Origin: Nautiliaceae bacterium
Lineage (GTDB): Bacteria; Campylobacterota; Campylobacteria; Campylobacterales; Nautiliaceae
DNA length: 49,650 nt
Direction: 5' to 3'
Assembly: GCA_027062985.1 (NCBI GenBank)
Contig: JAMOSR010000019.1
Location: 1-49,650, forward strand
Position 1 is the stretch's first letter; each line of letters opens with the position of its first letter. Below the pieces are notes generated by a model. The model did no database searches, had not been told where the DNA came from, and saw only the letters and a list, made by a program, of their open reading frames with translations. Shown piece after piece: positions 370 to 39,526 of the stretch. The position numbers were made by a program, and so were the translations under genes.

Positions 370-435
370 AATGAGATTGAATTTCTAAACTGAAAGTTGT
401 ATAATATAATTTTAACTATTTTTAAAGGAGAAAAA

Positions 436-2700
436 ATGAAAAAGGCTTTGCTTATTTCTCTTGTGGCAGTTTATTCTCTGGCTGATTGTTTAAGTTGTCA
501 TAAAGGTATTGAAAATATTAAAGACCCAAATTCTCCTATGATGAAGCAAATTGCTGCTTTATCTAAAAGCATGGGAGATAAGAACAATTGCGTGTTTTGT
601 CATGGTGGAAATCCAAAAGCAACTACTGCAAAAGAGGCTCATGTTCCTCCCAAAAATCATCCTGGTGGTTTAAAAGTGTTCGCGCCTGACCCTGGTAGCA
701 GGTATGTAGTAAAAAATACTTGTGGAATGTGTCATATGGATACGGTTAAGAACTTGGAAAAATCGTTAATGACAACGGAAGCTGGAAAAATTCAAGGAAA
801 TTTAATCGCTTTTGGGGTGCAAAAAGAGAGAAAAGCGATGTATGGAAACTTTGATGTAAAAGATGATGATGGATTTACACCTGCTTGGGGTACTTGCACT
901 TATAAAGAGTATATGAAATATCTGACTAAAAAATATCCGGACAATTTCGTTAAAAAGTTAAAAGCCCTTCCAGAAGCAGCAAAAGATATTGATGATGTTA
1001 AAGGTAAATCAAAAGAAGAGTTAATAAAACTAGCGGCAATTGCATATACAAGAAGTGACTGTTTAAGATGTCATGTTGGCGTAAAAGGAAGACAAGGCAG
1101 AGGCGATTATAGAGGAATGGGGTGTAGTGCATGTCATATTCCGTATTCAAATGAAGGCATTTATGAGGGGAATGATCCTACAATCAGCAAAAAAGTTAAA
1201 GGTAAGTTGCTGGTCCATACAATGCAAGGAAGCAGAAAGAGTAAAGTGTATATTCCTTCAACAGGAAAAACTTATAGCGGAATTGATGTTGAAACATGTA
1301 ATTCTTGTCATAATAGAGGAAAGAGAATTGGTGTGTCGTATACAGGCCTTATGGAATCCGCATATATGTCGCCATTTCAAGAAGGAGGCAAATCTCAGCC
1401 TAAACTTCATGGAAAAAGGTATTTGCATATAGCTGCTGATGTTCATTATAAGGCCGGAATGACTTGTCAAGACTGTCATACTTCTATCGACATGCATGGA
1501 GATGGGAATATTCACGGCACGACATTAGCGCAAGTTGAGATTGAGTGTCAAGATTGTCATGGAACTCCTAATAAATATCCTTGGGAATTACCAATAGGAG
1601 CTGGAGAGAAAAGTTTTAATAAAGGTTATAAAAAAGCAAGAGGTGTTACTAAAAAATTACCAAATTGGATGAAATATGGAACTGTTTATAATCCTGAAGA
1701 CGGTTATATATTAACAGCTAGGGGAAATCCTTTTGGAAATGTAATTAAACGAGGAAATGATGTAATTGTCCATTTGGCAAACGGAAAAGATTTAAAAGTT
1801 CCAGTACTTAAAAATTTAGCACCTAATTTTAATGCAAAAGCAAGGGTGGCAATGGTGGATGTTGCGTCTCATATGAAAAAAATGGAGTGTTATTCTTGTC
1901 ATGCTACCTGGGCACCTCAATGTTATGGTTGTCATGTAAAAGTAGATATGAGAGATAAAAAGACTGACTGGCTTGCAAGTGCTCTACCGTTAAAAAATGG
2001 ATTGACTTGGGAGAGTATAAAAAAATATAAAAAACTTCAAGGAAAAGCTAAAGAGACAAGGAGTTATCTACGCTGGGAAGATCCAATCTTAGGAATTAAT
2101 GGAGAAGGAATGATTTCACCGATTATTCCTGGGTGTCAAGTAACATATACAATAATTGGACCAGATGGTAAGACAGTTACTCTTAACGTTCAAACAAAAG
2201 TAAAAGATAATGGAAATATCGTTGCAGCAACTGATATAGCACCTGCTCAACCGCATACAGTTCAAAAGGAGGCAAGAAGTTGCGAGAGCTGTCATACAAA
2301 TCCGAAAACTCTTGGATATGGAACTAATGATGGAGCTTTTTTAAATCACCAAAATCAAAATTTAGTTTTTGATATAAAAGATAAAGATGGAAATATTGCA
2401 GTAAAAAATGCAACAACTCAAATAGCTGCAATTCCTGGAATGAATTATGATTGGACTAAAGTTGTTGATAGAAATGGCAAACAACTTCAATTGGTCGGCT
2501 CTCACTGGCCTGATTCAAGACCTCTTGATAAAGAGATTAGAGATAAAATGGAAAAAACAGGAACTTGTCTTGGATGCCACTCTCAAATGAGAATAAAAGC
2601 TCTATGGCAAAAAGTTAATAAACATCCTGGTATATTAACTAATAAAGACCATCAAGAAGTTATGAAAAAAGCCTTAAAAGCGTTGGCAAAAGAAAAATAA
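436..2700 (+). CDS. Secreted dodecaheme c-type cytochrome, function unknown
   Basis: 12 CxxCH motifs counted (CLSCH, CVFCH, CGMCH, CLRCH, CSACH, CNSCH, CQDCH x2, CYSCH, CYGCH, CESCH, CLGCH). AAGGAG RBS precedes ATG 436. Sec signal MKKALLISLVAVYSLA. Confidence 0.92.
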   Translation: MKKALLISLVAVYSLADCLSCHKGIENIKDPNSPMMKQIAALSKSMGDKNNCVFCHGGNPKATTAKEAHVPPKNHPGGLKVFAPDPGSRYVVKNTCGMCHMDTVKNLEKSLMTTEAGKIQGNLIAFGVQKERKAMYGNFDVKDDDGFTPAWGTCTYKEYMKYLTKKYPDNFVKKLKALPEAAKDIDDVKGKSKEELIKLAAIAYTRSDCLRCHVGVKGRQGRGDYRGMGCSACHIPYSNEGIYEGNDPTISKKVKGKLLVHTMQGSRKSKVYIPSTGKTYSGIDVETCNSCHNRGKRIGVSYTGLMESAYMSPFQEGGKSQPKLHGKRYLHIAADVHYKAGMTCQDCHTSIDMHGDGNIHGTTLAQVEIECQDCHGTPNKYPWELPIGAGEKSFNKGYKKARGVTKKLPNWMKYGTVYNPEDGYILTARGNPFGNVIKRGNDVIVHLANGKDLKVPVLKNLAPNFNAKARVAMVDVASHMKKMECYSCHATWAPQCYGCHVKVDMRDKKTDWLASALPLKNGLTWESIKKYKKLQGKAKETRSYLRWEDPILGINGEGMISPIIPGCQVTYTIIGPDGKTVTLNVQTKVKDNGNIVAATDIAPAQPHTVQKEARSCESCHTNPKTLGYGTNDGAFLNHQNQNLVFDIKDKDGNIAVKNATTQIAAIPGMNYDWTKVVDRNGKQLQLVGSHWPDSRPLDKEIRDKMEKTGTCLGCHSQMRIKALWQKVNKHPGILTNKDHQEVMKKALKALAKEK

Positions 2701-25040: not shown

Positions 25041-25189
25041 GGAACTGACTAAATACGCTCAACAAGAGAGCAAATTTTTAAACATGTCCTAAAAGCTAAA
25101 AAGTGCAAACCGCTACGCTTTAGGTGCACTTTTTTAACGCTTTTATTACATTAAAATTTACAATTGTTTTACTTTATTTAGTCAGTGCC
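25041..25189. mobile_element. 149-bp MITE with IS1595-like ends and 8-bp target duplication
   Basis: 15-bp TIR with 1 mismatch (GGAACTGACTAAATA / TATTTAGTCAGTGCC). Direct repeat CAAACTTA at 25033-25040 and 25190-25197. Confidence 0.92.
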
Positions 25190-25213: not shown

Positions 25214-25450
25214 ATGAAAAAATTATTAGTATTAGGAACTTTTATTGTAGCTGGGTTTGCGTATTCAAACTGTGCTATGTGTCATAACGGAGGTATGGCT
25301 AAAAAGCTTGATAGTATGACTTCTGCTGAGATTGTTAAAAAAATGAAAGAATATAAGGCAGGTCAAGGTAACCCTATGATGGTGAATATTGCAAAAGGTA
25401 TGAGTGATAAAGAAATAGAAGAAGCTGCTAAAAAGTTTGGTAAAAAATAA
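25214..25450 (+). CDS. Monoheme cytochrome c553-like protein
   Basis: Signal peptide, CAMCH and distal Met (NPMM). AAGGAG RBS precedes ATG 25214. Confidence 0.9.
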   Translation: MKKLLVLGTFIVAGFAYSNCAMCHNGGMAKKLDSMTSAEIVKKMKEYKAGQGNPMMVNIAKGMSDKEIEEAAKKFGKK

Positions 25451-25544: not shown

Positions 25545-27077
25545 TTATTCGTGAGTAACAACAGGCATTGGAACTTCGTTTGCCAATGCTTTTTTAGGGT
25601 CTCCGTATTTTTTAAGCATTTTCATTCTGTAATCATAAATATCTTTCATTTCTCTGATATCTTGCATTACTTGGAATACACCATGCCAGTGAGCATAATC
25701 CGGGCTTCCCATTGCTGCACCATGTCTGAATCTTCTACCTTCATGATGCCATAGATAGTAGTATAGTTTGAAGAACGGATCGCTCCATACGTCTGATTTG
25801 ATTAAACCTTTCTTTTTAAGGTCAGCCATCATTTTGTTTGCAAATGATTTATATTGATTGTAAATTTTTACAGCTGCGTCAACTCTTTGGAAAAAGTTGT
25901 TTGTAAATGTTGCTTGGTGACAAGCCATACAAACTTTTTTCATATCAGCTCTTGCAGCTTCTGGTCCGTTAGGGTTACCTGCTTTGGCGTTACCTCTTAT
26001 TACAGTGTTGGCGTTGATTTTTCCTCCACCTTTCCAGAATGCCCATCCGGCTGTTTCATGTCCACCAGTTCTTAAGAAACTGTCCGGTGCCCAAAGGTTC
26101 CATTTAAGTCTAAGTGATACGTTGTGAGTAGCTTTTAGACCATTGATTCCACTCATATGACAAGTAAAACATGTACCAGCTCTTAGAGTTTTGCCTGGAA
26201 TTTGTTCACCAGTTTCGAAGTTGTAATCTTCTTCGTTTGTTTCGAAAATATGTCCATGAACACTTGATTCGAACACTTCTTTCATTGGATGGTCAGGACC
26301 TAAGTGACAGTTGTTACAGCTCATAGGATGTCTTGCTTCAGCTGCGCTGAATTTATGTCTGCTGTGACAGCTTAAGCAGTTTGATACCCCACCGTCTGGA
26401 TAAAGCGCTGCAATACCGTCGTTTGGCCAAGTTGTTGCGTCAGGTCTACCTTGAGAATCTAATTTAATTGTAGTACCGTGACATTGGATACAAATATTAG
26501 CTACGTTCAAATCAGCAGTTCTTGGATTTTTTTCATTTGCTTGGAATACAGGACCGTCAGTTCTGATTCCTTTTTCCATAGCTTTACCGTCAACTAGGTA
26601 AGATTTGTTAGCACCTTTTAAGCTTTCATAATGGTATGCAAGTTTTGTCATTAGGTAACCGTGTTTGTTTTTAGGAGTTGCCAGCCATTGAGCCGCACCT
26701 CTACTGTGTCCAGAATTCATATATTCTGTTACTTCTTTTGCGTGACATTTAGCACAAGTTACAGAAGATACCGCGATTTGAACTGTCCAGTTGCTTCCTT
26801 GCATTGGGTGAGCTTTGAAAGCAGTTGGGTAATCTTTAGGAACTACGTGACATTCCACACATCCTACACCAGCTTTTGCGTGTTTAGAATGTTGCCAGTC
26901 AGCAACAATTCCAGGGTCAGTTGTTTTGTGACACATTAAACATTGATCGTTACTTACACCTTGTGGGTGGAAGTTTTTAAGTTTTTGATAGTTTGGGTTT
27001 GAATCTAAGCTGTTTGCTGCAAACGCTAAACTTCCGATTGCTGCAACGCTTAGTCCTGCACTAAGTACTTTTTTCAT
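25545..27077 (-). CDS. hao: Octaheme hydroxylamine oxidoreductase-like protein (epsilon-Hao)
   Basis: 8 CxxCH motifs and a signal peptide. HAO-family motifs CHSRH.FS...AR.P..C..CHLGPDHP and WHHEGRR.RHGAAM..PDYAHWHG. Confidence 0.9.
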   Translation of the reverse strand: MKKVLSAGLSVAAIGSLAFAANSLDSNPNYQKLKNFHPQGVSNDQCLMCHKTTDPGIVADWQHSKHAKAGVGCVECHVVPKDYPTAFKAHPMQGSNWTVQIAVSSVTCAKCHAKEVTEYMNSGHSRGAAQWLATPKNKHGYLMTKLAYHYESLKGANKSYLVDGKAMEKGIRTDGPVFQANEKNPRTADLNVANICIQCHGTTIKLDSQGRPDATTWPNDGIAALYPDGGVSNCLSCHSRHKFSAAEARHPMSCNNCHLGPDHPMKEVFESSVHGHIFETNEEDYNFETGEQIPGKTLRAGTCFTCHMSGINGLKATHNVSLRLKWNLWAPDSFLRTGGHETAGWAFWKGGGKINANTVIRGNAKAGNPNGPEAARADMKKVCMACHQATFTNNFFQRVDAAVKIYNQYKSFANKMMADLKKKGLIKSDVWSDPFFKLYYYLWHHEGRRFRHGAAMGSPDYAHWHGVFQVMQDIREMKDIYDYRMKMLKKYGDPKKALANEVPMPVVTHE

Positions 27078-27114: not shown

Positions 27115-27147
27115 ATTGTACAAAAAAAAAGTGTTAGAAAAGTGCTT
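27115..27147 (-). promoter_or_regulatory. hao promoter: RCACTT direct repeat (11-bp period) plus -10 TACAAT
   Basis: Minus strand AAGCACTTTTCTAACACTTTTTTTTTGTACAAT. Same geometry as 38912-38944. Confidence 0.7.
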
Positions 27148-27170
27148 ATGAAGAAAAAAGGGAGAAAATT

Positions 27171-27515
27171 TTAATATTTTCCTTTAAGAGAACCGAAATA
27201 TTTAACTTCTTCGGCTTTTTTATCTGTATTGAGCTCTTCTACCGTAGCGTTTAAATCGATTTCTTCTTTCATTTTTTCAAGTTCTTCTTCGCAATAGCTC
27301 ATATGCATATCAGCACTAATAATATAAGGCATCTGTTCTATTTGAGTTAGTTTTTCAATTTCCTCTTCAACGTTTTCACCTTCTATCGTAATAATTATTA
27401 CGCCTTTTTGTTTATCTCCGAAATGAACGTCGCAAAGAGGTGATTCTTGAAGATTTAACCAAACTGCGTCGTAATGTTCAGGCTTTGTTTTTACTATAAT
27501 ACTCGAAATATTCAT
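27171..27515 (-). CDS. napD: NapA chaperone NapD
   Basis: MNISSIIV...G.IIITIEGE motif. Last gene of the nap operon. Confidence 0.92.
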   Translation of the reverse strand: MNISSIIVKTKPEHYDAVWLNLQESPLCDVHFGDKQKGVIIITIEGENVEEEIEKLTQIEQMPYIISADMHMSYCEEELEKMKEEIDLNATVEELNTDKKAEEVKYFGSLKGKY

Positions 27516-27524
27516 GTGACTCCT

Positions 27525-28478
27525 TTATTTGATTTTCCATATAATTATTTCTGCCGGTGAAAAACTTAAAATTTCTTTTTCATTTAAATATTTCATTCCG
27601 TTTAAAGCCATGGTGTGGCCTTTTAGAAGTAATTTAGGTTTATTAAATATAGAATAAACCATAATATCGTTTGCCTCGTCATATTGAATTGCAAAAGCGT
27701 CCAATGTTGGAGAGAGTGCGGTTGCGTAAGGTAAAAATTTTGCTTTTAGTCTGTTTTTTGCATATCCGCTATTTATATCATAAATTCCGACTCTCATATC
27801 ACTGCTTCCGTTTATTACAAGATTTTTAATAAAATCCAAACTAAGAGTTTTATCTTTATTGAATCCTTTTATTTCTTTTAATTTTTTCCCGTTAATTACA
27901 TCTATTATTTTAACGGCTCCGCTTTCGTCTCCTACAGCGGCTTTTGTTTTTGTTTCGTTTAATACATAAGTGGAAAATACATAATTTCCTGCTTGGATTT
28001 TATATAGCCATTTTTTTGATTTTAAATCATAAAGGGCCATTTCATCGCTTAATAAGGCGAAAAATATTTGTGAATTGTTAATAAATCTTGCTTTCATTAA
28101 TGTCTGTTTTGTAGTAAATAAGTGAGATAATTTATGATTTTTTAAATCGAATAAGAAGAATTCTCTAACAGCGTTTTCCCCTTCGGCAAGAATTAAAAGT
28201 GTTTTGTTATCAGGGGAAATATCAAGGGAGTAAATAGGCATAGCTATTAAATCTCCCATAAAATCATGTATTTTAGGTAAAGAAAACTTATAAATATCTT
28301 TTAATGTTTTAAAATCTCTTATTACAATTTCTCCATTTTCAAGACCGGAGATTATATATGTGTTATTGTATGTAATTTTTGATATGTAATAATTGTATTT
28401 TATAGTCTTGAAAGGAGTCAGCGTTTGATATGCAAAAACCATTATACTTATAATAACTATTAAAAAAATCTTTTTCAT
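27525..28478 (-). CDS. napL: Periplasmic WD40-like protein NapL
   Basis: Signal peptide, LPKIHDFMGD, GDESG, LKGH beta-propeller features. Lies between napF and napD. Confidence 0.85.
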   Translation of the reverse strand: MKKIFLIVIISIMVFAYQTLTPFKTIKYNYYISKITYNNTYIISGLENGEIVIRDFKTLKDIYKFSLPKIHDFMGDLIAMPIYSLDISPDNKTLLILAEGENAVREFFLFDLKNHKLSHLFTTKQTLMKARFINNSQIFFALLSDEMALYDLKSKKWLYKIQAGNYVFSTYVLNETKTKAAVGDESGAVKIIDVINGKKLKEIKGFNKDKTLSLDFIKNLVINGSSDMRVGIYDINSGYAKNRLKAKFLPYATALSPTLDAFAIQYDEANDIMVYSIFNKPKLLLKGHTMALNGMKYLNEKEILSFSPAEIIIWKIK

Positions 28479-28487
28479 TAAAACTCC

Positions 28488-28964
28488 TTATAAAATTTTA
28501 ATTTCTATAGCGTTGTTTGGACATACGCTTATACAAAAACCACAGCCTGTACATTTTTCCAAATCTATCGCAGGGTTAAATGTCCCATTATATATTATAG
28601 CAGATTCTTCACATATATCTTGACAGGAAAAACAGATTGTTTGATTCCATGCAAGACATTTTGACGGATTAATAATCATTTGAGCGTCTAATTTATTTTT
28701 TTTATTTTTTATCGACAATACTTCGTAAGGACAGGCTAAGGCGCATTCGTCACAAAGAGTACATCCGTTTTGTCCAAATTTAATTATAGGAAAATTTTCT
28801 TCTATATAAATAATTTTTTCCTTGCATGCATTCAAACAATCTTTTGTTTCACATTCTATACATTTTATAAAAGATTCTTTTGAAGAATAATATGGGGGAA
28901 ATAAGAAAGACTTAAAAGGAGAGGAAACTCTCCTAAAAAAATTTCTTTTTGATTTGTCTACCAA
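28488..28964 (-). CDS. napF: Ferredoxin-type protein NapF
   Basis: Several CxxCxxCxxxCP clusters and an RNFF N-terminus. Confidence 0.88.
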   Translation of the reverse strand: MVDKSKRNFFRRVSSPFKSFLFPPYYSSKESFIKCIECETKDCLNACKEKIIYIEENFPIIKFGQNGCTLCDECALACPYEVLSIKNKKNKLDAQMIINPSKCLAWNQTICFSCQDICEESAIIYNGTFNPAIDLEKCTGCGFCISVCPNNAIEIKIL

Positions 28965-29455
28965 TTTTTTAGGCTTTCAAATTTGTTTTCCACAACAGAG
29001 TTTACTTTTGCCTGAGGAGTGTGACAAGTTGTACAGAAATATCTGCTTCCTGCAACTTTTGGAGCTTTTTTGTTTCCTCCGAAATTGTCAACAAAATGGT
29101 CTGCCGGCATAGGCGTAACTCCTAAAGCCTTGGCTGTTGAAGGCATATGGCAGTTTAAGCACATATTTTTGCCTACTTTAATAGGAACCATACCTTTTAC
29201 GCTGTGAGGAATCATAGGAGGTGCGTCTGAAAAAGATTTTTTAAACGGTTTTACTTTTCCAGGGATTGGAGCTGGCGCATGATATTCCACTACAGGCAGA
29301 TTCTCACTTCCAGCATTTAAATCTGTTTTTCTAACTCCAGTAATTTCTACTGTTTTATTTGAGACTTTATTATTTTGAGTCTGAGATTGTGTAGTACATC
29401 CGGCAAATACTAATACTGCCGCTGCTATTGAATTAACTATTAGCAGTTTTTTCAT
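28958..29455 (-). CDS. napB: Diheme cytochrome c NapB (lipoprotein-type)
   Basis: APPMIPHS, CLNCH, RYFCTTCHTPQ. FAGC lipobox. Confidence 0.95.
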   Translation of the reverse strand: MKKLLIVNSIAAAVLVFAGCTTQSQTQNNKVSNKTVEITGVRKTDLNAGSENLPVVEYHAPAPIPGKVKPFKKSFSDAPPMIPHSVKGMVPIKVGKNMCLNCHMPSTAKALGVTPMPADHFVDNFGGNKKAPKVAGSRYFCTTCHTPQAKVNSVVENKFESLKNW

Positions 29456-30284
29456 GATTTTCTCCTTTTTTTTGTTTTATTAAATATCTTAGAGTGAATT
29501 TTAAAGCGTTATCGTTGCATACTTCAATGCATCTTCCGCAGTTAGTACATTCAATTCCGGAAATGTAATCGCTTTTTTTATGAATTACAGGAGAGAGAAC
29601 CTGATTCTCGGGACATACGATTAAACATTCTCCGCAATTTGTACAGTTATCTTTTTCATGATAAACCCTTACGATGTTTTTTGAGCCTATAATGCTGTAC
29701 ATAACTCCAACCGGGCATATATGCCCGCACCATCCGTTTTTAAGTACAAAAGTGTCAAAAAGAAAAATTACCAAAAGCCATACCCAGCCAAATCCAAGCG
29801 TAAAGGCTATACCTCTTGTAAATATTCCGATTGGGCTTATGAATTCAAATGCCGCCGCTCCTACAAGCGTTGAAACTACGAGCATAATTACTAAAAAGAA
29901 ATATCTGAATTTTTTTATTTTTTGTGCACTGATTAAATTATCTTTTTCATGATGCGTTTTTCTTCTAACCCATGCGGCTAAATCAGTTATCATATTAACC
30001 GGGCATACCCAGCTGCAATAAGCTCTTCCTCCTATTAATCCGTAAAAAAAGAGTATGATTAAAACGCCTATAATCAGGTCGGTACTGATAACTGCTCCTG
30101 CAAACGCCATTTGAAGTACCGCAAAAGGGTCGGCTAACGGTATAGTATCAAAAAGTTTGGAAAAGCTTAAGTTTCCGGCTAATATTTTCCATCCGTAATA
30201 ATTTGCCGTAAAATATAAAAATAATATTAAAATTTGGGTTATACGTCTTAGGATGAGATATCTGTTTTTAATTATTGATCCCAT
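29433..30284 (-). CDS. napH: Quinol dehydrogenase membrane subunit NapH
   Basis: GGRAYCSWVCP, GWCGHICP and two C-terminal 4Fe-4S motifs. Confidence 0.95.
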   Translation of the reverse strand: MGSIIKNRYLILRRITQILILFLYFTANYYGWKILAGNLSFSKLFDTIPLADPFAVLQMAFAGAVISTDLIIGVLIILFFYGLIGGRAYCSWVCPVNMITDLAAWVRRKTHHEKDNLISAQKIKKFRYFFLVIMLVVSTLVGAAAFEFISPIGIFTRGIAFTLGFGWVWLLVIFLFDTFVLKNGWCGHICPVGVMYSIIGSKNIVRVYHEKDNCTNCGECLIVCPENQVLSPVIHKKSDYISGIECTNCGRCIEVCNDNALKFTLRYLIKQKKGENHEKTANS

Positions 30285-31093
30285 GTTACACCTTGGTTAA
30301 GATTTTCAACAGCACTTTTTTTGCTTCTTCCCGTTACGGTAGTTGTTTTGGTAGAAGCTTTTTGAACTCTTTGTTCATCTTTTTTATCCCATCCTTTAAC
30401 GTATCTATCACCCGCTTTTCCTAAAAATACTTCTCTTGGGAATATTTTTATAGCCGCTTTTTCCGTAACGCAAGCCATTTCACACATTCCGCAACCCGTA
30501 CAAAACTCTTCATGTACAACAGGGATACGATAAGCGTGTTTTCCCGTTCTTTCGTTTTTTTTCCATTCTATGGTAATTGCTTTGTCCATTTCAGGACATG
30601 CCCTATAACAAGCGGTACATTGCAAGCCCCAAAAAGCTATGCAGCTGCTTGGGTCTATTACCGCGACGCCCATTTTAGCGTAGTCAATTGCTACTTCCCC
30701 TTTATCATTTTTACACATATCAGGAGTAAGAGCGCCTGTTGGACAGGCGTACATACAAGGTATGTCGTCACACATAAAACAAGGTCCGGTTCGTGCAATA
30801 AAATAAGGAGTCCCTATAGGAACTTTATCCCCTGGGGCTCCTAGTTTTAAAGTAATTATTTCATTTCCGTCTATAATTACTTTATTATCCCTGTTTTTGC
30901 ATGCTTCAACGCATAACCCGCATCTGATGCAGGTTTTTAAAAAGTCTTCCTCTTTTAACGCTCCTGGAGGGCGAAGAGTCAAAGGTTTATCTTTATTCTC
31001 TTCGACAAACCCCGCAACCACACTGCCGGCTGCTATTGCAGCAGCCGAAGCCTGAGCCATTGAAGTAATAAATGAGCGTCTTTTTGTATCCAT
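30272..31093 (-). CDS. napG: Ferredoxin-type protein NapG
   Basis: Tat-like RR, LRPPGAL, CIRCGLCVEAC, GTPYF, four Cys clusters. Confidence 0.95.
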   Translation of the reverse strand: MDTKRRSFITSMAQASAAAIAAGSVVAGFVEENKDKPLTLRPPGALKEEDFLKTCIRCGLCVEACKNRDNKVIIDGNEIITLKLGAPGDKVPIGTPYFIARTGPCFMCDDIPCMYACPTGALTPDMCKNDKGEVAIDYAKMGVAVIDPSSCIAFWGLQCTACYRACPEMDKAITIEWKKNERTGKHAYRIPVVHEEFCTGCGMCEMACVTEKAAIKIFPREVFLGKAGDRYVKGWDKKDEQRVQKASTKTTTVTGRSKKSAVENLNQGVTWDQ

Positions 31094-31101
31094 TAAAATC
31101 C

Positions 31102-33918
31102 TTACGCTTTATAAATTTTAACTGCCGCTTTTTTGTAATCTGTTTCTTTACTCATTGGACATGTTGCGTCTAAACATACTTTGTTGATGAGTACTTTTTC
31201 ATCAAACCATGGAACGAATACCAATCCTCTTGGAGGTTTGTTTCTTCCTCTTGTTTCCACTCTTGCTTTTACTTTTCCTCTTCTACTTTCTATTACTACT
31301 AAATCAAATCTGTTTAGACCTAACTCTTTAGCGTCTTTAGGGTTCATATAACATAAAGCTTCAGGCATTGCTCTGTAAAGCTCAGGTACTCTCATAGTCA
31401 TAGTTCCTGTATGCCAGTGCTCAAGCACCCTTCCTGTACATAGCCAGAAATTGTATCCTTTTGTATCATATTTAGGGTCTTCAGGGTGAACCATAAACGG
31501 TCTCCAGAAAATTTTCGCTTTATTTTTAAGGTTAATTTTACCTTTGCTAGCAATAGGACCTTTTAAGTCACCTCTTTTAATTGTTTTTAGTAACGGTCCG
31601 TAGAATGCAAATTTTTCACCAGGTTTTGCATGTTTTCTTGCATATGGGTCGTATTCTACGTTAAATCTCCATTTTGTTTCTTTTCCGTTGACTACAGGCC
31701 ATCTAAGTCCTCTTACTTTATGATATGTATCAAAATCAGCTAAGTCGTGTGCATGTCCTAGACCAAATTTTCTATATTCTTCCCAAAGTGCCTTATGTAC
31801 GAAGAATCCGTATCCTTTCCATGGTTTTCCGTCGCTTCCTAAAATTTCTCTACCGTCCCCTTCAGCTTCAGTGTTTTTATGCATTTTTCCTGTTTGAGGG
31901 TTTTTGGCAATTGGATCTGGCCATGGGAAGTTTTTGCGATATTCAGGTCTGTTGTATAGAACATCAAACAGTGTCATTTCAGGGTCGTATCCCATAGCTT
32001 TTGCTTTATCAAGTACGTTTGGAAGTTTTGCCTGAGGCCATTCTTTCCAAACTTCTTTTAATTTAAATCTTTTTGAAAATTCCATAATTGTCCAAAGGTC
32101 CGGCATTGCTTCACCCGGAGGTGTTACCTGTTGTCTCCAGTGCTGAGTTCTTCTCTCAGCGTTTCCGTAAGCTCCCCATTTTTCATAAATCATAGCTACA
32201 GGTAAAATTAAGTCCGCAACTCTTGCAGATACTCCAGGATATGCTTCATTAACAACAATGAAATTATCCATAGTTCTTGCTGCTTTTAACCAGTGATTTG
32301 CATTAGCGGTATTTTGCCATGGGTTGTTTACGTGTACCCATACCCATTTGATTTTACCGTCTTCAATGTCTCTCATGATTTTTACAAAGTGGCTTCCAAC
32401 TTTTGGATTTAGTGTACCTTCAGGTAATTTCCACATTTTTTCGGTAATTTTTCTGTGTTTAGGATTTGCTACAAGCATATCTGCCGGAAGTCTGTGTGCG
32501 AATGTACCAACTTCTCTTGCCGTACCACATGCACTTGGCTGTCCTGTAAGTGAGAATGCACCGCTTCCAGGAAGTGACTGTTTTCCAAGCAATAGGTGAA
32601 TCATATAAATTTGTTCGTTAACCCAGCTTCCTCTAACATGCTGGTTGAATCCCATGGTCCAGAAAGATACTATTTTTCTATTTGGGTCACAGTAAAGGTC
32701 TGCTAGTTTTTGAAGTTTTCTTTTGAAACTATCAAGTGATTCGTCTGGGTCACCTTTAGCTACTTTAGCTACATAATCAAGAGTATAAGGTTCAACTCCT
32801 TTTTTGAAATCTTCAAAGCTTATTTCCCAATGCCAGAAAGGTTTTTTACCGGCTGCATGTTTCATTTCCATTTCATCGCCGGCTTTCCATTTTCCAATTG
32901 GTGATAAAGCTACAGCTTCTTCATCAGTTACTTTTTTTACCACTTGTTTAACAACGGTATCTTTTTCTTTTTCCGTTACGTTAGGATTATTAGGGTTTCT
33001 CATACCGTATCCGGTATCGGCATGTCCTGTCGCAAAGATGGTATGTTTTTTAACAAAATCCCAATTTACGGCATTTCTTTTGATAATTTCTCTTGCTATG
33101 TAGTTCATAATAGCAAGGTCTGCGTTAGGTCTGAAAATGATTTCCATATCCGCAAGGTTAGAACATCTGTTTCTGTATGTTGATAAGTTTACTACATAAT
33201 ATTTATCAGGGTTGTTAAGTTTCGCATCTGATACTCTTGACCAAAGAATAGGATGCATTTCCGCCATATTAGCACCCCAGGTGATGACCGTATCTGTAAT
33301 TTCGATATCGTCATAACATCCTGCAGGTTCGTCAATACCGAATGTCTGATAAAAACCTACAACTGCACTTGCCATACAGTGTCTTGCATTTGGGTCGATG
33401 TTGTTACTTCTCCATCCGGCCTTTATTAATTTTACGGCTGCGTATCCTTCTTGGATTGTATATTGTCCAGAACCGAATATCGCAACTCCTGTAGGTCCTA
33501 GTTCGTTATAATATTTTTTAAATTGTTTTTCCATTTCATCAAACGCTCTTTTCCAAGAAACAGGTCTGAATTTTCCGTTTTTGTCAAATTCACCTTTATC
33601 GTTCATTCTTAGAAGCGGTTGAGTAAGTCTGTCAGCACCGTACATAATTTTTGCGTTGAAGTAACCTTTAATACAGTTAATACCTCTGTTTACTGGACTT
33701 TCAGGGTCACCTTTTACCGCTACGATTTTATCGTCTTTTACCGCTACCATAATACCGCATCCGGTACCACAGAAACGACATACGGCTTTATCCCATTGCC
33801 AACCGGCTTGAGATTCTTTTGCTGCAGCTTCAGCTTCTTGTGGAATGGTTATTCCAGCTGCGCTTGCAGCCGCTACTGCTGCTGTTGTTTTTAAAAATTC
33901 TCTTCTGTTCATTGACAT
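31102..33918 (-). CDS. napA: Periplasmic nitrate reductase catalytic subunit
   Basis: Tat signal [45 protein letters not shown] precedes ATG 33918. Confidence 0.98.
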
Positions 33919-34014
33919 ATGCTCTCCTTTTTGAGATTTTACGCTTTTTTTACGTAATAATGATACTACTTTTCTGGAGTTTTGTGGTAAAATTTTTAAA
34001 AATTTTATAAAAAA

Positions 34015-34047
34015 AAGCACTTTATTGGCACTTTTTAATTTTATTTT
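34015..34047. promoter_or_regulatory. RCACTT direct repeat in the divergent napA/modA region
   Basis: AAGCACTTTATTGGCACTTT with half-sites at 34017 and 34028. Confidence 0.65.
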
Positions 34048-34060
34048 AAGGATTTTTTAT

Positions 34061-34777
34061 ATGAAAAAAATACTCTTTATATCTTTTTTAGCCATATTTT
34101 CATTAGCCGATGTATATGTGGCGGCTGCTTCTAATATAAATTATGCTTTACCTGAGCTTGTAAAAGAGTTTAATAAAAAATATCCTGAAATAAATATTAA
34201 AACGGTTTTGGCAAGCAGCGGGAAACTAAGCGCTCAAATAATTCACGGGGCGCCTTATGATATTTTTTTAGCTGCTAATATGAAATATCCTAAATTTTTA
34301 TATAAAAAAGGTTTTGCAAAAACAAAACCCAAAGTTTATGCAAAAGGCGCTATAACTCTTTTTAGTGTAAAAATAAAAAATCTGGATTTAAAAAAATTAA
34401 AAAGCGTTAATCAAATAGCTGTTGCTAATCCAAAGACGGCCCCTTATGGAGAAGCTGCTCTTGAAGCTTTTAAAAATGCCGGTATTGATAAATGTATTAA
34501 AAATAAATTGATATATGCCGAAACGGTAAGCAGTGTAATCCCTTACGTTTATCATTCCGCTGATGTGGGGGTTATAGCAAAATCATTAATTTATTCAAAA
34601 AAATTAAGGAATAAAAGATTCTATTATAAGGATATACCGTATAATTTATATACTCCCATTAATCAGGGAGTGGTATTGTTAAAAGATAATGAAGAGGCAA
34701 AAAAATTTTATAGGTTTATCTTTTCTGAAGAGGCAAAAAAAATCTTAAAAAAATATGGATATATCGTAAATGAATAA
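34061..34777 (+). CDS. modA: Molybdate ABC transporter substrate-binding protein
   Basis: AAAS, SSGKL.AQI..GAPYD.F..AN, ANPKTAPYG.AA. Confidence 0.94.
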   Translation: MKKILFISFLAIFSLADVYVAAASNINYALPELVKEFNKKYPEINIKTVLASSGKLSAQIIHGAPYDIFLAANMKYPKFLYKKGFAKTKPKVYAKGAITLFSVKIKNLDLKKLKSVNQIAVANPKTAPYGEAALEAFKNAGIDKCIKNKLIYAETVSSVIPYVYHSADVGVIAKSLIYSKKLRNKRFYYKDIPYNLYTPINQGVVLLKDNEEAKKFYRFIFSEEAKKILKKYGYIVNE

Positions 34778-35144
34778 AATCAGAGCATATTTAGAAAATA
34801 TTCATTCTTTAAAACACCTTAATTTACTTGAATTTAAAATAGAAAAGTATATACTTAATGTAGTGGTGTTAGAAATGAATATAGATTTAAAAACAGGGGA
34901 TGAGGTTTTTTTAGGTATAAAACCTACGAAGCTTTTTATTTCCGGTAAAATATGCGATTTTGAAAATGTTTTGCCTGTAAAAATAAAAAATATTCAAAAA
35001 GGCGAAATACTTTCAAATGTGTTATGTGAAATTTCATTACAGCAGATAGAAGTTATTATGTTGAGCAAAAACGTGAATTTTGAAAAAGAGGGGTATTTAC
35101 TGTTTAAATCAACCGACGTATATATTATAGGAAAAGTTAAATGA
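34770..35144 (+). CDS. TOBE/Mop-domain molybdate-binding protein
   Basis: MNKI.A, GIKPT, N.LPVKI..I.KGEILS.V pattern within the mod operon. Confidence 0.75.
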   Translation: MNKIRAYLENIHSLKHLNLLEFKIEKYILNVVVLEMNIDLKTGDEVFLGIKPTKLFISGKICDFENVLPVKIKNIQKGEILSNVLCEISLQQIEVIMLSKNVNFEKEGYLLFKSTDVYIIGKVK

Positions 35145-35818
35145 TAGATTTTACCCCTTTTATTTTGTCGTTTAAACTGGCTTTTTTTGTAACATTGATT
35201 TTGCTTGTTGTCGGTATTCCTTTTGCATGGTGGCTGTCTCGTTTGAAATCCGGCATAAAACCTCTAATAGAATCCATTACGGCCCTTCCTATAGTATTGC
35301 CGCCTTCGGTACTGGGATTTTATCTTTTAGTTTTTTTATCCCCTGATTCTTTTTTTGGAAAAGTCATTTACGATATTTTTAATATTAAACTTGTTTTTAC
35401 ATTTGAAGGATTGGTAATTGCGAGTTGTATTTATTCTTTTCCTTTTATGATTCAGCCTATTCAAAGCGGTTTTGAGAGTCTTAACAAAAATATAATAGAA
35501 GCTTCTTACGTAAGCGGCAAAGGTTTTTTGACAACGCTTTTTAGGGTAATTCTTCCAAATATAAAAACTTCTCTTTTAACTGCGATTATTATTACTTTTG
35601 CTCATACTATAGGGGAATTTGGAGTAGTATTGATGGTGGGAGGAGCTATACCTGGGAAAACGGAAGTTGCAAGTGTGGCGATTTATGATTTTGTTGAAAC
35701 TCTTGATTATAAAAATGCCCATATATACAGTGCCATTATGCTTTTAATAAGTTTTACGGTATTACTTGCGGTTTATTATATAAATTACAGGATAAAGAAA
35801 AAACATGGTATCGGTTAA
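35141..35818 (+). CDS. modB: Molybdate ABC transporter permease
   Basis: LPIVLPPSVLGFYLL, FAHTIGEFG. Confidence 0.95.
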   Translation: MIDFTPFILSFKLAFFVTLILLVVGIPFAWWLSRLKSGIKPLIESITALPIVLPPSVLGFYLLVFLSPDSFFGKVIYDIFNIKLVFTFEGLVIASCIYSFPFMIQPIQSGFESLNKNIIEASYVSGKGFLTTLFRVILPNIKTSLLTAIIITFAHTIGEFGVVLMVGGAIPGKTEVASVAIYDFVETLDYKNAHIYSAIMLLISFTVLLAVYYINYRIKKKHGIG

Positions 35819-36668
35819 TATTACAAAAACACTTCACGGTTCTAAAGGAAAGATGGAGCTTAATTGTGATTTTGAAATTTCTAAAGGGGATTTTTTAGCC
35901 GTTTTCGGGCCTAGCGGTAGCGGTAAGACTACTCTTTTGAGAGTTATAGCCGGTTTGGAAAAATCAAAAGGAGAAATTGTAGTCGATAAAAAAGTTTGGC
36001 AAAACGATAAAATTTTTTTAAAACCTCAAAAAAGAGAAATAGGGTTTGTTTTTCAGGATTTTGCTCTTTTTCCTAATATGACGGTACTTGAAAATCTTTT
36101 GTATGTAAATAATGATAAAAAATTTGCTTTAAAGCTGCTTAAAATGGGGGAAATTTTGGAATTAAAAGACAGATTCCCTTTAATGCTCAGCGGTGGTCAA
36201 AAACAAAGAGTCGCTTTAATAAGGGCTATTATGAGAAAACCTAAACTGCTTTTAATGGATGAGCCTTTTTCGGCTCTTGATGTTTCTATGAGGGAAAAAC
36301 TTCAAAATGAAATTTATATGTTTCATAGGGAGTTTGGACTAACTACCATTATGGTGTCTCATTCCCCGGGCGAAATTTATAAACTGGCCAATAAAGTTTT
36401 AGAAATAGACCATGGAAAAATTATAAATTTCGGGGATGTTTCAAAAATTCTATTAAAAACAAATACAAGCGAAAAATTTTCAATAGAAGGAACTATTCTT
36501 GATATAATAAAAACAGATGTAATTTATATTGCAGTAGTCGAAATAGCTTCTAGAATAGTTGAAATAGTCCTTTCTCAAAAGGAGGCTTTAAATTTTAAAA
36601 CCGGAGATAAAATTATAATATCGACTAAAGCTTTTCATCCGAATATAAAATTAAAGGAAAAAGTATGA
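35805..36668 (+). CDS. modC: Molybdate ABC transporter ATPase
   Basis: GPSGSGKT, LSGGQKQR, LMDEPFSALD and a C-terminal TOBE. Confidence 0.93.
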   Translation: MVSVNITKTLHGSKGKMELNCDFEISKGDFLAVFGPSGSGKTTLLRVIAGLEKSKGEIVVDKKVWQNDKIFLKPQKREIGFVFQDFALFPNMTVLENLLYVNNDKKFALKLLKMGEILELKDRFPLMLSGGQKQRVALIRAIMRKPKLLLMDEPFSALDVSMREKLQNEIYMFHREFGLTTIMVSHSPGEIYKLANKVLEIDHGKIINFGDVSKILLKTNTSEKFSIEGTILDIIKTDVIYIAVVEIASRIVEIVLSQKEALNFKTGDKIIISTKAFHPNIKLKEKV

Positions 36669-37312
36669 AAATTTTACTTGTTGAAGACGATGAATTTATA
36701 GGTGAGAGTATAAAAGATTATTTTGAACTTCAGGGAAATCGTGTAGATTATTATTCTTCTCCTAAAAAGGCTTTAGAAGAGATATATCCTAATAATTATG
36801 ATATTTTTTTAATAGATATTAATATGCCCGGTATGAACGGATATGAATTTTATGAGGAGCTTAAAAATTATGCCGGGGAAGTGCCGGTAATATTTATTAC
36901 CGCTTATTCTGATATAGAACATGTGGAAAAAGCGTTTGAGTTAGGTGCGGCGGATTATATTAAAAAGCCTTTTGATTTAAAAGAGCTTGAGCTTCGTGTT
37001 AAGAGACTGGTTTTTAAAAAAACCAACTGGATAAAAATAAGTGACAATTATAAATTTGACTTAAGTAAACTAAAACTTTTTTATAAGGATAAAGAAGTTG
37101 ATTTAACCCAGAACGAAAAATATTTTTTGGAAATTTTAGTAAAAAACATAGGGCAGGTAGTTGATAACGAAACATTAAAAGATTATGTATGGGACGGAAA
37201 GGATATATGTAACAACACCATAAGAACCCATGTGAAAAAGCTTAGAAGCAAGTTGGAAGAAAATTTTATTAAAAACGTTAGGGGAAGCGGATATAAAATT
37301 GAGAAACAGTAA
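36665..37312 (+). CDS. OmpR-family response regulator
   Basis: ILLVEDD, DINMP, ADYIKKPF and winged helix RTHVKKLRSKL...NVRGSGY. Confidence 0.95.
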   Translation: MKILLVEDDEFIGESIKDYFELQGNRVDYYSSPKKALEEIYPNNYDIFLIDINMPGMNGYEFYEELKNYAGEVPVIFITAYSDIEHVEKAFELGAADYIKKPFDLKELELRVKRLVFKKTNWIKISDNYKFDLSKLKLFYKDKEVDLTQNEKYFLEILVKNIGQVVDNETLKDYVWDGKDICNNTIRTHVKKLRSKLEENFIKNVRGSGYKIEKQ

Positions 37313-38909
37313 CGATTTTAAATTTGATATCACTATAGCTTTTGTGATTTTTGCCTTTTTAATAGTCGTAAGTGTTACTTATACGGCTATTTATATTTTT
37401 ACAAATTTAACAACACAGGAATTTAAAGAAAAAGTTAAACTTTCGGCAAACAGTTTTTATTATATCTATAACCAAAAAGAAAATTCCATAAAAAACAGCG
37501 TCAGGGCTTTGGCTTCTAATGATATTTTTAACGTAAAATTCAATGTAAATCCGGAAATAATAAAATCGGTGTTTAAAACAATGCTTCTTGCTAATTATTC
37601 TATAAAAGAAATAAATTATTATAATCCTTACGGAAAGCTTGAGGTAGGATGTGAAAAATTTAATAAAAATGTTATCTGTTATTCGGATAACAGAAGAATG
37701 CTTAACACCAAAAACTTTAAATTTGACAAGCTTTTTATAAGAAGAAATTTTGTAAAAGACGCTATAGAGTTTATATCCATATCTCCAATCATAAATACAA
37801 AAAAGGGTTTTATAGAAGTTAAGTCCTTAATTCATTTAGACTATCCTTCCGATTTATTTAACCTTATTTTAGTGGATAAAAAAGGTATTATTCATTTTAT
37901 GTCTTCTTCTTATTCAAGACCGGTTAATAGTATATATGATATTTTTAATTATTTTTTAGGGGATAAAATATTAAAAACAAAAGAAGGTTTTGTTACCGAT
38001 GATATTTATGTAAAAGAGTTTTCTTCTGATTTTAAAATTATTTTTATTCAAAATAAAAGCGTAATAAGCAAAACCAATAGAGTTTCTCAGAAAATGGCTT
38101 TTATTATGCTTATAATTTCTATTTTTGTAGCTATTCCCCTTGGAATGTTTTTTTCAAAACCTTTTTATAAATTTTATGAAGAGCTTGATAAAAGAGTAAA
38201 AGAAGAAATAGAAAAAAGACAGCAAAAAGAACAGTTGTTAATGCATCAGAGCAAACTTGCTGCCCTTGGTGAAATGCTTGGGAATATAGCCCATCAGTGG
38301 AGACATCCTTTAACTAGGCTTTCCTTGCTTATTCAAAATCTTGAAATGGCTTTTAAAATGAATAAACTCGATGATAAAAGGTTTAACCAGTTTAAAGAAA
38401 ACGCTATGCTTCAGATAAATTATATGTCAAATACGATAGATGATTTTATTAACTTTTTTAAAAAAGATACAAAAAAAGTAGAGTTTTATCCAAACGAAAT
38501 AGTAGAAGACGCTATAAAACTTATAGAAGGAAGAATCAAACAAAACGGAGTGGAAATTATCAGGGAAATAGGTTCTGCTAAATCTGTTTACGGATATAAA
38601 ACGGAATTTTCTCAAGTTATACTTAATATTTTAAATAATGCTATTGATGTTTTAACAGAAAGAAACATAAAGGATAAAAAGATATGGATAAGAATAAACG
38701 GTAATAAATTAGAGATAGAAGATAATGCAGGAGGAATACCTGAAGAGATAAAAGATAAAATATTTGAACCTTATTTTACCACTAAATTTCAGTCTCAAGG
38801 GACGGGAATAGGACTTTATATGAGTAGAGTCATAATAACTCAGCATTTTAACGGCAAATTGTATGTTTATAATTCAAAAAACGGGGCTGTATTTGTAATA
38901 GAAGTGTAA
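37299..38909 (+). CDS. Membrane sensor histidine kinase
   Basis: Two TM segments around a periplasmic domain. H-box IAHQWRHPL, NILNNA, DNAGGI, GTGIGL. Confidence 0.95.
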   Translation: MRNSNDFKFDITIAFVIFAFLIVVSVTYTAIYIFTNLTTQEFKEKVKLSANSFYYIYNQKENSIKNSVRALASNDIFNVKFNVNPEIIKSVFKTMLLANYSIKEINYYNPYGKLEVGCEKFNKNVICYSDNRRMLNTKNFKFDKLFIRRNFVKDAIEFISISPIINTKKGFIEVKSLIHLDYPSDLFNLILVDKKGIIHFMSSSYSRPVNSIYDIFNYFLGDKILKTKEGFVTDDIYVKEFSSDFKIIFIQNKSVISKTNRVSQKMAFIMLIISIFVAIPLGMFFSKPFYKFYEELDKRVKEEIEKRQQKEQLLMHQSKLAALGEMLGNIAHQWRHPLTRLSLLIQNLEMAFKMNKLDDKRFNQFKENAMLQINYMSNTIDDFINFFKKDTKKVEFYPNEIVEDAIKLIEGRIKQNGVEIIREIGSAKSVYGYKTEFSQVILNILNNAIDVLTERNIKDKKIWIRINGNKLEIEDNAGGIPEEIKDKIFEPYFTTKFQSQGTGIGLYMSRVIITQHFNGKLYVYNSKNGAVFVIEV

Positions 38910-38911
38910 AA

Positions 38912-38944
38912 AAGCACTTTATAAGCACTTAATTTGTTTATAAT
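38912..38944 (+). promoter_or_regulatory. cycB promoter: GCACTT direct repeat plus -10 TATAAT
   Basis: AAGCACTTTATAAGCACTTAATTTGTTTATAAT. Confidence 0.72.
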
Positions 38945-38968: not shown

Positions 38969-39526
38969 ATGAAAAAATCTACTCTTGGAGCGTTAATAGT
39001 AGGAGCTGTTGTAGGGCTTGGTATTTCTTATGTTGCAGCTGTTATGGTGGATATTACAGGACAGCCTAAATTTTGTGCCAACTGTCATACGATGAAACCT
39101 ATGATTGAAAGTTTTCATTACAGTGTGCACGGAGGAAATAACCCTCAAGGATTTGCCGTTCATCACTGTACGGACTGTCATCTTCCGCACAACTCTTTAA
39201 TCGGGTATTTGTTTGCAAAAGGGTTAAGTGGGGCAAGAGATGCAATGGCTCAGTTTGGTGTTCTTAAAATGGTTGATTTTAAAGAAAATTTCTGGGAAAT
39301 GAAACATTATACATATGACAGCGGATGTTTGCACTGTCACCATGGAATAAAAGAGCCTGAAAAAGCAATCGGACTTGCAGATAATGTAAAAGAATTGCAT
39401 CAAAAATATTATTGGGATGCTAAAAATTCAGGAAAAGATATCAGCTGTGTAAATTGTCACAACGACTATACAATGAGTCATTTTGCTCATCCTAACTTGT
39501 TGGAAACCCTTCATACTGCGGAATAA
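38969..39526 (+). CDS. NapC/NirT-family tetraheme quinol dehydrogenase (cM552/CycB-like)
   Basis: N-terminal TM anchor, CANCHTM (CxxCHxM), CTDCHLP, CLHCH, CVNCH. Confidence 0.92.
   Translation: MKKSTLGALIVGAVVGLGISYVAAVMVDITGQPKFCANCHTMKPMIESFHYSVHGGNNPQGFAVHHCTDCHLPHNSLIGYLFAKGLSGARDAMAQFGVLKMVDFKENFWEMKHYTYDSGCLHCHHGIKEPEKAIGLADNVKELHQKYYWDAKNSGKDISCVNCHNDYTMSHFAHPNLLETLHTAE

Follow-up and report, generated by a model that had tools for sequence, protein, structure and literature searches.

Respiratory gene clusters of Campylobacterota were reported to be controlled by local two-component systems of the OmpR type. SulRS of the vent bacterium Sulfurimonas hydrogeniphila comprises an OmpR-type regulator and a membrane kinase encoded beside a respiratory cluster; it was described to act at two direct TTACA repeats with protection from -51 to -17, the kinase sensing the substrate anion (PMC12936845). 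A similarly local OmpR-type regulon was described for organohalide respiration by PceSP from Sulfurospirillum, with a seven-helix sensor and CTATW-N17-CTATW sites located over the -35 region or about 50 bp further upstream (PMC7755780). PhoB was shown to bind the pho box, i.e., two 11-nt direct-repeat units with the consensus CTGTCAT, head-to-tail and in contact with sigma-70, and it governs a global phosphate regulon (PMC4415409). Here, we describe a candidate system of this kind on a stretch of 49,650 nucleotides from a Nautiliaceae bacterium (assembly GCA_027062985.1, contig JAMOSR010000019.1; this whole stretch is called the window in the following). A tandem repeat, RCACTT-N5-RCACTT (the box), is found upstream of hao, of the napAGHBFLD operon and of cycB, and the OmpR/PhoB-family response regulator encoded between the latter two probably switches these three targets together, the cue likely being nitrate or nitrite.

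The known controllers of nap and of nitrite reductase in Campylobacterota are the Crp/Fnr-type proteins NssA, NssB, and NssC of Wolinella succinogenes (PMC6682613, PMC11539149), for which the consensus TTGA-N6-TCAA was given (PMC11539149). Campylobacterota were reported not to possess the NarXL and NarQP systems of Proteobacteria (PMC6682613). The system described here differs from each of these. The repeat is GCACTT at nap, hao and cycB, as opposed to TTACA at sox for SulRS, a comparison made by repeat and targets and not by protein sequence; the kinase has two transmembrane helices and another repeat than PceSP; and the putative regulon is small and local, unlike that of PhoB. No perfect TTGA-N6-TCAA was found within 150 nt upstream of napA (0/27), hao (0/27), or cycB (0/26) in the genomes of the family, and the two-component system likely fills the role of Nss at these genes. 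If nitrate or nitrite is the cue, the system would resemble NarX/NarQ-NarL/NarP in that a membrane kinase and a regulator switch on nap and nitrite reduction. However, NarX and NarQ were described to sense with an all-helical P-box domain (PMC8534201), whereas the kinase in the window has a predicted alpha/beta dCache domain and no such Pfam domain, and its regulator carries an OmpR-type Trans_reg_C domain instead of the LuxR-type helix-turn-helix of NarL-type regulators. The fold matches the double-PDC type of vpHK1S-Z8 (PF21623), but the family profile hit and the distal motifs are lacking and a Cys-Cys hairpin is present in addition. As in OmpR/PhoB regulons, a REC and Trans_reg_C protein with D51, a cognate kinase and a tandem repeat of 10-11 bp period at a fixed promoter position were found. 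By the features tested, the system would thus be placed with the local OmpR-type systems of Campylobacterota of the SulRS and PceSP kind and not with NarXL or Nss.

No description of the site or of the regulator was found in the literature searched, which included the accessible text of the Nautilia profundicola genome paper and of two reviews, subscription papers such as Haase et al. 2017 and supplements being outside its coverage; the repeat of C. jejuni DccR did not come up in it either. If true, the proposal would give the first named switch for the nitrate-to-ammonium route of Nautiliaceae via Nap and epsilon-Hao, with a named regulator, a precise site in two promoter layouts, a regulon of three promoters and a separate Nss-type site at hcp. 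In five other families, this box also labels a 12-haem cytochrome module that has so far not been studied.

The Tandem Repeat at hao and cycB

A sequence-only reading of the window, made before this analysis, had described three intergenic sites that share RCACTT-N5-RCACTT with an 11-bp period. This was confirmed, as were the letters quoted for each site: the pattern has exactly three matches in the window, compared to a mean of 0.00 and a maximum of 0 in 100 dinucleotide-preserving shuffles. The whole source assembly (974 kb, 63% complete) contains five, the two additional ones overlapping each other within one open reading frame on contig C141. Across 30 genomes of the family the bare 17-mer gave 75 matches compared to 33 for the reversed control and is by itself insufficiently rare. 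If the box is combined with a -10 hexamer, 62 genome-wide matches oppose none in the reversed control, so that the enrichment over AT-rich background that the earlier reading had demanded is present, although this composite pattern was defined after viewing the hao and cycB sites and is partly tuned to them. Fifty-five of the 62 matches are located at hao (27), cycB (26), and napA (2).

Each of hao and cycB is present in 27 of the 30 genomes, and the upstream DNA of 27 hao and 26 cycB genes was examined. All of these promoters (27/27 and 26/26) carry a sense-strand GCACTT-N5-RCAC box 8 nt before TAnAAT. Because the composite pattern had been written post hoc, an upstream alignment blind to the motif was run; its conserved blocks are the GCAC cores, the -10 hexamer and the ribosome-binding site, the cores falling into the highest bin of conservation (90% of genomes or more), compared to mostly 30-70% in the flanks. 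The box also accompanies hao where the gene is inverted or relocated (G015, G019, G022, G023, G025, and G027). At the -35 position all 53 promoters have ACTTTT, ACTCTT, or ACTTTA, and thus they lack a standard, TTGACA-like hexamer. In contrast, TTGAAA some 17 nt ahead of TATAAT is seen in most of the hydA promoters from these genomes. Taken together, sequence conservation supports the repeat as an operator-like site at hao and cycB, and the common promoter design, which is kept even when both genes are far apart on the chromosome, supports the partnership of Hao and CycB. In one genome (G003:C1:62113-63697, locus L321), hao is followed by another, broken copy, for which a weaker box (score 16.7) and a TATACT hexamer are present as well.

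The scan with a position weight matrix that had been proposed along with the three sites was done for the source genome and its relatives. With the source genome and its closest relative, G008, left out of the training, the matrix gives the three sites of the window the highest scores of the whole genome (28.0, 24.6, and 19.7). The real genome has four hits at scores of at least 17, compared to 3, 1, and 1 in Markov controls, and two at scores of at least 20, compared to none. It is thus the position and not the score alone that carries the case. A generic promoter scan performed at chance level (56 vs. 55).

The Site Between napA and modA

The middle site of the window lies between napA and modA. 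The gene napA was found in 27 of the 30 genomes, and 24 of these have the box in inverted orientation to the gene; a spacing of 50-51 nt separates its napA-proximal end from a conserved hexamer, TATYAT or TATAAT, further downstream. The other two intact napA sites, in G028 and G029, show the layout of hao instead, so the site appears to serve napA in either geometry. On its far side the box faces modA in 13 of the 24 genomes, the regulator gene in nine and neither in two; in G025 the napA box is retained although the regulator and kinase genes are on another contig. The distance to the modA or regulator side ranges from 12 to 255 nt, whereas the spacing to napA is fixed.

The sequence-only reading had counted Mod among the targets, with the fallback that the middle site may instead act on napA, and had placed a hexamer exactly 10 nt after the second CAC of each site. 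The three hexamers (TACAAT, TATTTT, and TATAAT) are indeed in the sequence, but TATTTT, the proposed -10 of modA, is conserved in 2/24 genomes. With the variable distance and with mod not adjacent to the napA site in 11/24 genomes, modA was rejected as a target and the fallback was adopted. In some genomes the site may additionally act on the mod-regulator-kinase transcript, though not as a conserved feature.

The Putative Box-Binding Regulator

To the question which protein binds the box, 401 genomes of the class were sampled and searched with the DNA-binding domain, and up to 13 candidates per genome were scored. Among these candidates at least 15 regulators were found outside Nautiliaceae. 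At least eight of them group with the regulators of Nautiliaceae in a single clade (support 97/95), with the recognition helix NT[LI]RT in common. Not included in that clade are the other seven, more distant regulators and 18 paralogues taken from four genomes of Nautiliaceae. All eight outside clade genomes, which represent five other Campylobacterota families, carry the box and a TAnnnT hexamer, again separated by 8 nt; in seven of them they are no more than 4 kb away from the regulator, and in G310 they are on another contig. As background, box and hexamer occur in 28/385 other genomes, the reversed control in 25/401; 13 of the 28 matches are near-identical and from one genus, and nine inspected loci outside the clade are coding or low-scoring except that of G310, a clade genome. 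A matrix built from Nautiliaceae only scores the clade sites at 19-29 and finds nothing of at least 17 around the seven non-clade regulators. In 7/8 clade genomes the target is a 12-haem cytochrome that is 53-63% identical to the product of window positions 397-2700. The same box with differing target genes indicates that the box follows the regulator and not the target.

The reverse case is given by G018, which is 99% complete: it has no regulator orthologue (best match 38%), no sensor domain, no cycB, and a hao remnant, and its napA box is decayed (best score -1.4). This co-occurrence and loss, together with the absence of the box from three genomes that have hao but not this regulator (see below), support the linkage, already proposed by the sequence-only reading, of the repeat to the embedded two-component regulator, which is likely the binder of the box.

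Several observations touch these loci. The cytochrome encoded at 397-2700 has 12 CxxCH motifs, is a distant relative of Geobacter ExtM (below cut-off) and has no box in the window; its homologues in the five other families occur with the same regulator clade, the box and thioredoxin-like lipoproteins. Genome G415 (L243:9961 and 12032) has a clade regulator and two boxes, which precede the genes for a thioredoxin-domain protein and for an RND exporter; a multihaem target is missing from this neighbourhood. Genome G018 has also lost napGHFL and modAB and retained napA, napB, napD, and hcp (L054, G018:C3:12000-30000). Furthermore, three Campylobacteraceae-like genomes (G166, G233, and G393; L318-L320) encode cycB-hao without this regulator and without the box, directly behind a Crp/Fnr gene, and this gene order suggests an Nss-type control of epsilon-Hao there.

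The Sensor Domain and the Possible Cue

The genes for regulator and kinase overlap, so that a HisKA/HATPase partner is encoded alongside the regulator. The model of the periplasmic kinase domain (pLDDT 86, 17 sequences) has four helices and 11 strands in a double-PDC/dCache fold, and the structure atlas agrees. Its best fold match is vpHK1S-Z8 (Z 16.7, rmsd 3.7, 228 aligned residues), of which the structures 3LID and 3LIE are listed as phosphate-bound (PMC8534201). The kinases beside the outside clade regulators are PF21623 members with sequence hits to 3LID and share with vpHK1S-Z8 the motifs QLR, RF, LQDKSxRYYF, and IDLN, which may line an anion pocket. The Nautiliaceae sensor has no PF21623 hit and lacks all four motifs; nevertheless, both groups of domains are homologous (hhalign probability 96.9 at 17% identity). 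Among its 12 invariant positions is the cysteine pair C118/C127, a Cys-Cys hairpin. Searches with the sensor domain found 17 loci on genome contigs, all from Nautiliaceae/Nautiliales, and 12 hits in a 50% representative library; they missed the outside orthologues, which were found via the regulator.

Of the claim that the kinase is a nitrate/nitrite sensor of a type other than NarX-NarL, the latter half stands, as judged from the predicted dCache domain and the Trans_reg_C domain. With the motifs absent and no conserved arginine, nothing in the protein identifies the ligand, and the case for nitrate or nitrite derives from the target genes and from their induction in N. profundicola. There, transcripts of napA, haoA, and cycB were reported to be increased 4.6-, 8.5-, and 7.1-fold with nitrate and sulfide compared to ammonium and polysulfide; the locus tags are 0556 for napA, 0559 for cycB, and 1280 for hao (PMC3701875). 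The numbering of these tags would accommodate two genes from napA to cycB, which is the layout of nine genomes analyzed here. In proteomes of Nautilia PV-1, Hao and Nap were reported to increase together under pressure, and Hao and Har moved in opposite directions in both comparisons (PMC10092268), which fits a separate control of hcp. Nitrate or nitrite, sensed directly or via a partner, is by a small measure favored as the cue.

Proposed Mechanism and Alternative Explanations

That the regulator binds the box and activates is probable from the comparisons above. In the mechanism we propose, the active kinase would phosphorylate the regulator, and two regulator monomers would bind head-to-tail to the GCACTT halves, which are spaced by 11 bp. 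The bound dimer would cover the -35 zone of hao and cycB and recruit RNA polymerase there in a PhoB-like manner, while the inverted site at napA, centred at about -71, would represent an upstream activation position. Sites in these two layouts were likewise described for PceSP (PMC7755780). The levels of nitrate reductase, of Hao as the enzyme of nitrite reduction and of the proposed donor of Hao on the quinol side would thereby be raised jointly. With hcp outside the regulon and answering separately to an Nss-type Crp/Fnr factor, two tiers of control would result, and Mod would be outside as well. As to its origin, it is conceivable, if doubtful, that an ancestral two-component system of the 12-haem cytochrome was rewired in Nautiliaceae: the GCACTT specificity would have been kept, nap, hao, and cycB would have gained the box in replacement of Nss, and the distal dCache pocket would have been rebuilt into a nitrate/nitrite sensor without P-box, NIT domain or conserved arginine.

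Several points weigh against joint control by this regulator in response to nitrate or nitrite. The N. profundicola comparison altered nitrogen source and sulfur species together, and ammonium reduced haoA and cycB and napA barely (PMC3701875); Hao and Nap of Nautilia PV-1 diverged slightly between chemostat and batch (PMC10092268). No arginine or histidine is conserved in at least 9/17 sensor domains, and outside Nautiliaceae the regulator clade is found at non-nitrate genes. The co-occurrence of clade and box has a Fisher p of 2e-9, which may overstate it since the eight outside genomes may share one transferred module (seven have the same target), and further clade members may have been missed with at most 13 candidates scored per genome. 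Genome G018 represents a single loss event in which napGHFL was lost too, and it keeps one composite match before a gene of the fatty-acid-hydroxylase family at a score of 14-16, below the training minimum of 19.6. The tuning of the composite pattern adds to these points.

With 33 control matches in 30 genomes, the bare repeat occurs at a background level of roughly one per genome, as expected of a housekeeping promoter element or of AT-rich periodic noise, but this idea is largely refuted and scarcely credible, since box and -10 are nearly confined to hao, cycB, and napA (55/62; control 0), the napA site is inverted and far from the -35 position, and the nine loci inspected outside the clade were coding or low-scoring save that of G310. 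The bound regulator might also repress, the site over the -35 zone blocking polymerase at hao and cycB and the napA/mod site repressing the mod-regulator-kinase transcript; indeed, in G001, G002, G005, and G009 the end of the site is 12-15 nt away from the start codon on the mod/regulator side and could overlap a transcription start. We consider repression improbable, since a usable -35 hexamer is missing at hao and cycB, the spacing toward the mod/regulator side varies between 12 and 255 nt compared to the fixed napA side, and the Campylobacterota precedents with sites over the -35 region were described as activators (PMC7755780, PMC12936845).

Activation could also come from a different, unlinked regulator with the adjoining two-component genes as passengers, as these genomes hold 3-7 further OmpR-type matches and G018 keeps one composite match without the regulator. 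This, too, is unlikely, because the box tracks the regulator clade into five other families with different targets, even with box and regulator on separate contigs in G310, and because the paralogues tested differ in the recognition helix and are not part of the clade. The remaining alternative accepts the regulator as binder and concerns the cue: the kinase may sense the periplasmic redox state through C118-C127, sulfur species or a partner such as CycB, and the system would tune multihaem cytochromes generally. These two cysteines are among the 12 invariant sensor positions, the QLR, RF, LQDKSxRYYF, and IDLN motifs are gone from the Nautiliaceae sensors, the targets outside the family are either a 12-haem cytochrome together with thioredoxin-like genes or an RND exporter and a gene with a thioredoxin domain, and apo-TorC was reported to act on TorS via its periplasmic region (PMC8534201). 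Nevertheless, the conserved targets in Nautiliaceae correspond precisely to the nitrate and nitrite steps, no box is present at the 12-haem cytochrome and hem genes of the window, and all three targets were reported to be nitrate-induced (PMC3701875), so that we regard such a general role as possible but doubtful. Overall, a joint switch of hao, cycB, and nap by the embedded regulator explains the observations best.

Extent of the Proposed Regulon

The earlier reading had expected further sites at hcp, amt, and hem genes. For hcp, present in 26 genomes of which 24 were evaluated (G028 and G029 being left out), a perfect TTGA-N6-TCAA was found about 50-70 nt before the gene and no strong box in 24/24 genomes. 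The gene was therefore rejected as a target, and an Nss-type regulon is likely present in Nautiliaceae, judged from the hcp loci (L128 and 23 others). The expectation also failed for the hem genes: no box was found at those tested, nor at trx, ccdA, the upstream region of the regulator itself, or the 12-haem cytochrome of the window. No amt-like gene was recovered from the 63%-complete assembly.

The fourth rank of the matrix in the source genome (19.6) is located before hydA, which encodes the small subunit of an uptake hydrogenase. A napA-type inverted site 49-50 nt before TATTAT is found at hydA in only four genomes of the source genus (G000:C20:3845-3861, i.e., L171, and L170, L173, L153), and the other recovered hydA promoters have no napA-type site; hydA is at best a lineage-specific candidate. 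Strong boxes furthermore occur at L109:1501 and L086:2017 (G020 and G021) and at L073:2194 (G028) with scores of 26.6, 28.1, and 31.9, and the genes behind them encode a 96-aa protein without Pfam hit and a YfdX-family protein; these are possible lineage-specific members.

Features of the Window

The window encodes hao, napAGHBFLD, modA-TOBE-modB-modC, the OmpR-type regulator, the histidine kinase, cycB, a thioredoxin-like gene, ccsA, and hem genes (Table 1). The genes which we take to be napA, napG, napH, napB, napF, and napL were named from sequence features and recall, napD from Pfam.

Table 1. Coordinates of the predicted sites and genes in the window.
Feature	Position	Strand	Remarks
Tandem box GCACTT-N5-ACACTT, hao promoter	27129..27145	-	covers the -35 zone; approximately -37 to -21, given TACAAT as the -10
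Predicted hao -10, TACAAT	27115..27120	-	8 nt after the box; TAnAAT at equal spacing in 27/27 genomes
hao, octahaem epsilon-Hao-type, predicted target	25545..27077	-	8 CxxCH
Tandem box GCACTT-N5-GCACTT, napA	34017..34033	+	in inverted orientation to napA; 51 nt from its proximal end to the -10; centre about -71
Predicted napA -10, TATCAT	33960..33965	-	in the conserved TATYAT block
napAGHBFLD operon, predicted target	27171..33918	-	
modA, TOBE gene, modB, modC	34061..36668	+	between napA and regulator; regulon membership unsupported
OmpR/PhoB-family response regulator, likely box binder	36665..37312	+	REC and Trans_reg_C; D8, D9, D51, T79, K101; recognition helix NNTIRTHVKKLR
Sensor histidine kinase	37299..38909	+	two transmembrane helices; predicted periplasmic dCache at about residues 33-264; C118/C127; H332; HisKA and HATPase_c
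Tandem box GCACTT-N5-GCACTT, cycB promoter	38914..38930	+	directly behind the kinase stop codon
Predicted cycB -10, TATAAT	38939..38944	+	8 nt after the box
cycB, NapC/NrfH-family tetrahaem cytochrome, predicted target	38969..39526	+	4 CxxCH

A weak GCACTT-like triple repeat at 25115-25142 (score 12.6) was rejected as a site, as it is inside a MITE-like element of 149 bp (25041-25189). This element, with terminal inverted repeats of 15 bp and a target duplication of 8 bp (CAAACTTA), is located upstream of the gene for a small monohaem cytochrome c (25215-25450). The source genome contains 15 sequences that match it fully or in part, and matches were also found in the four congeners tested.

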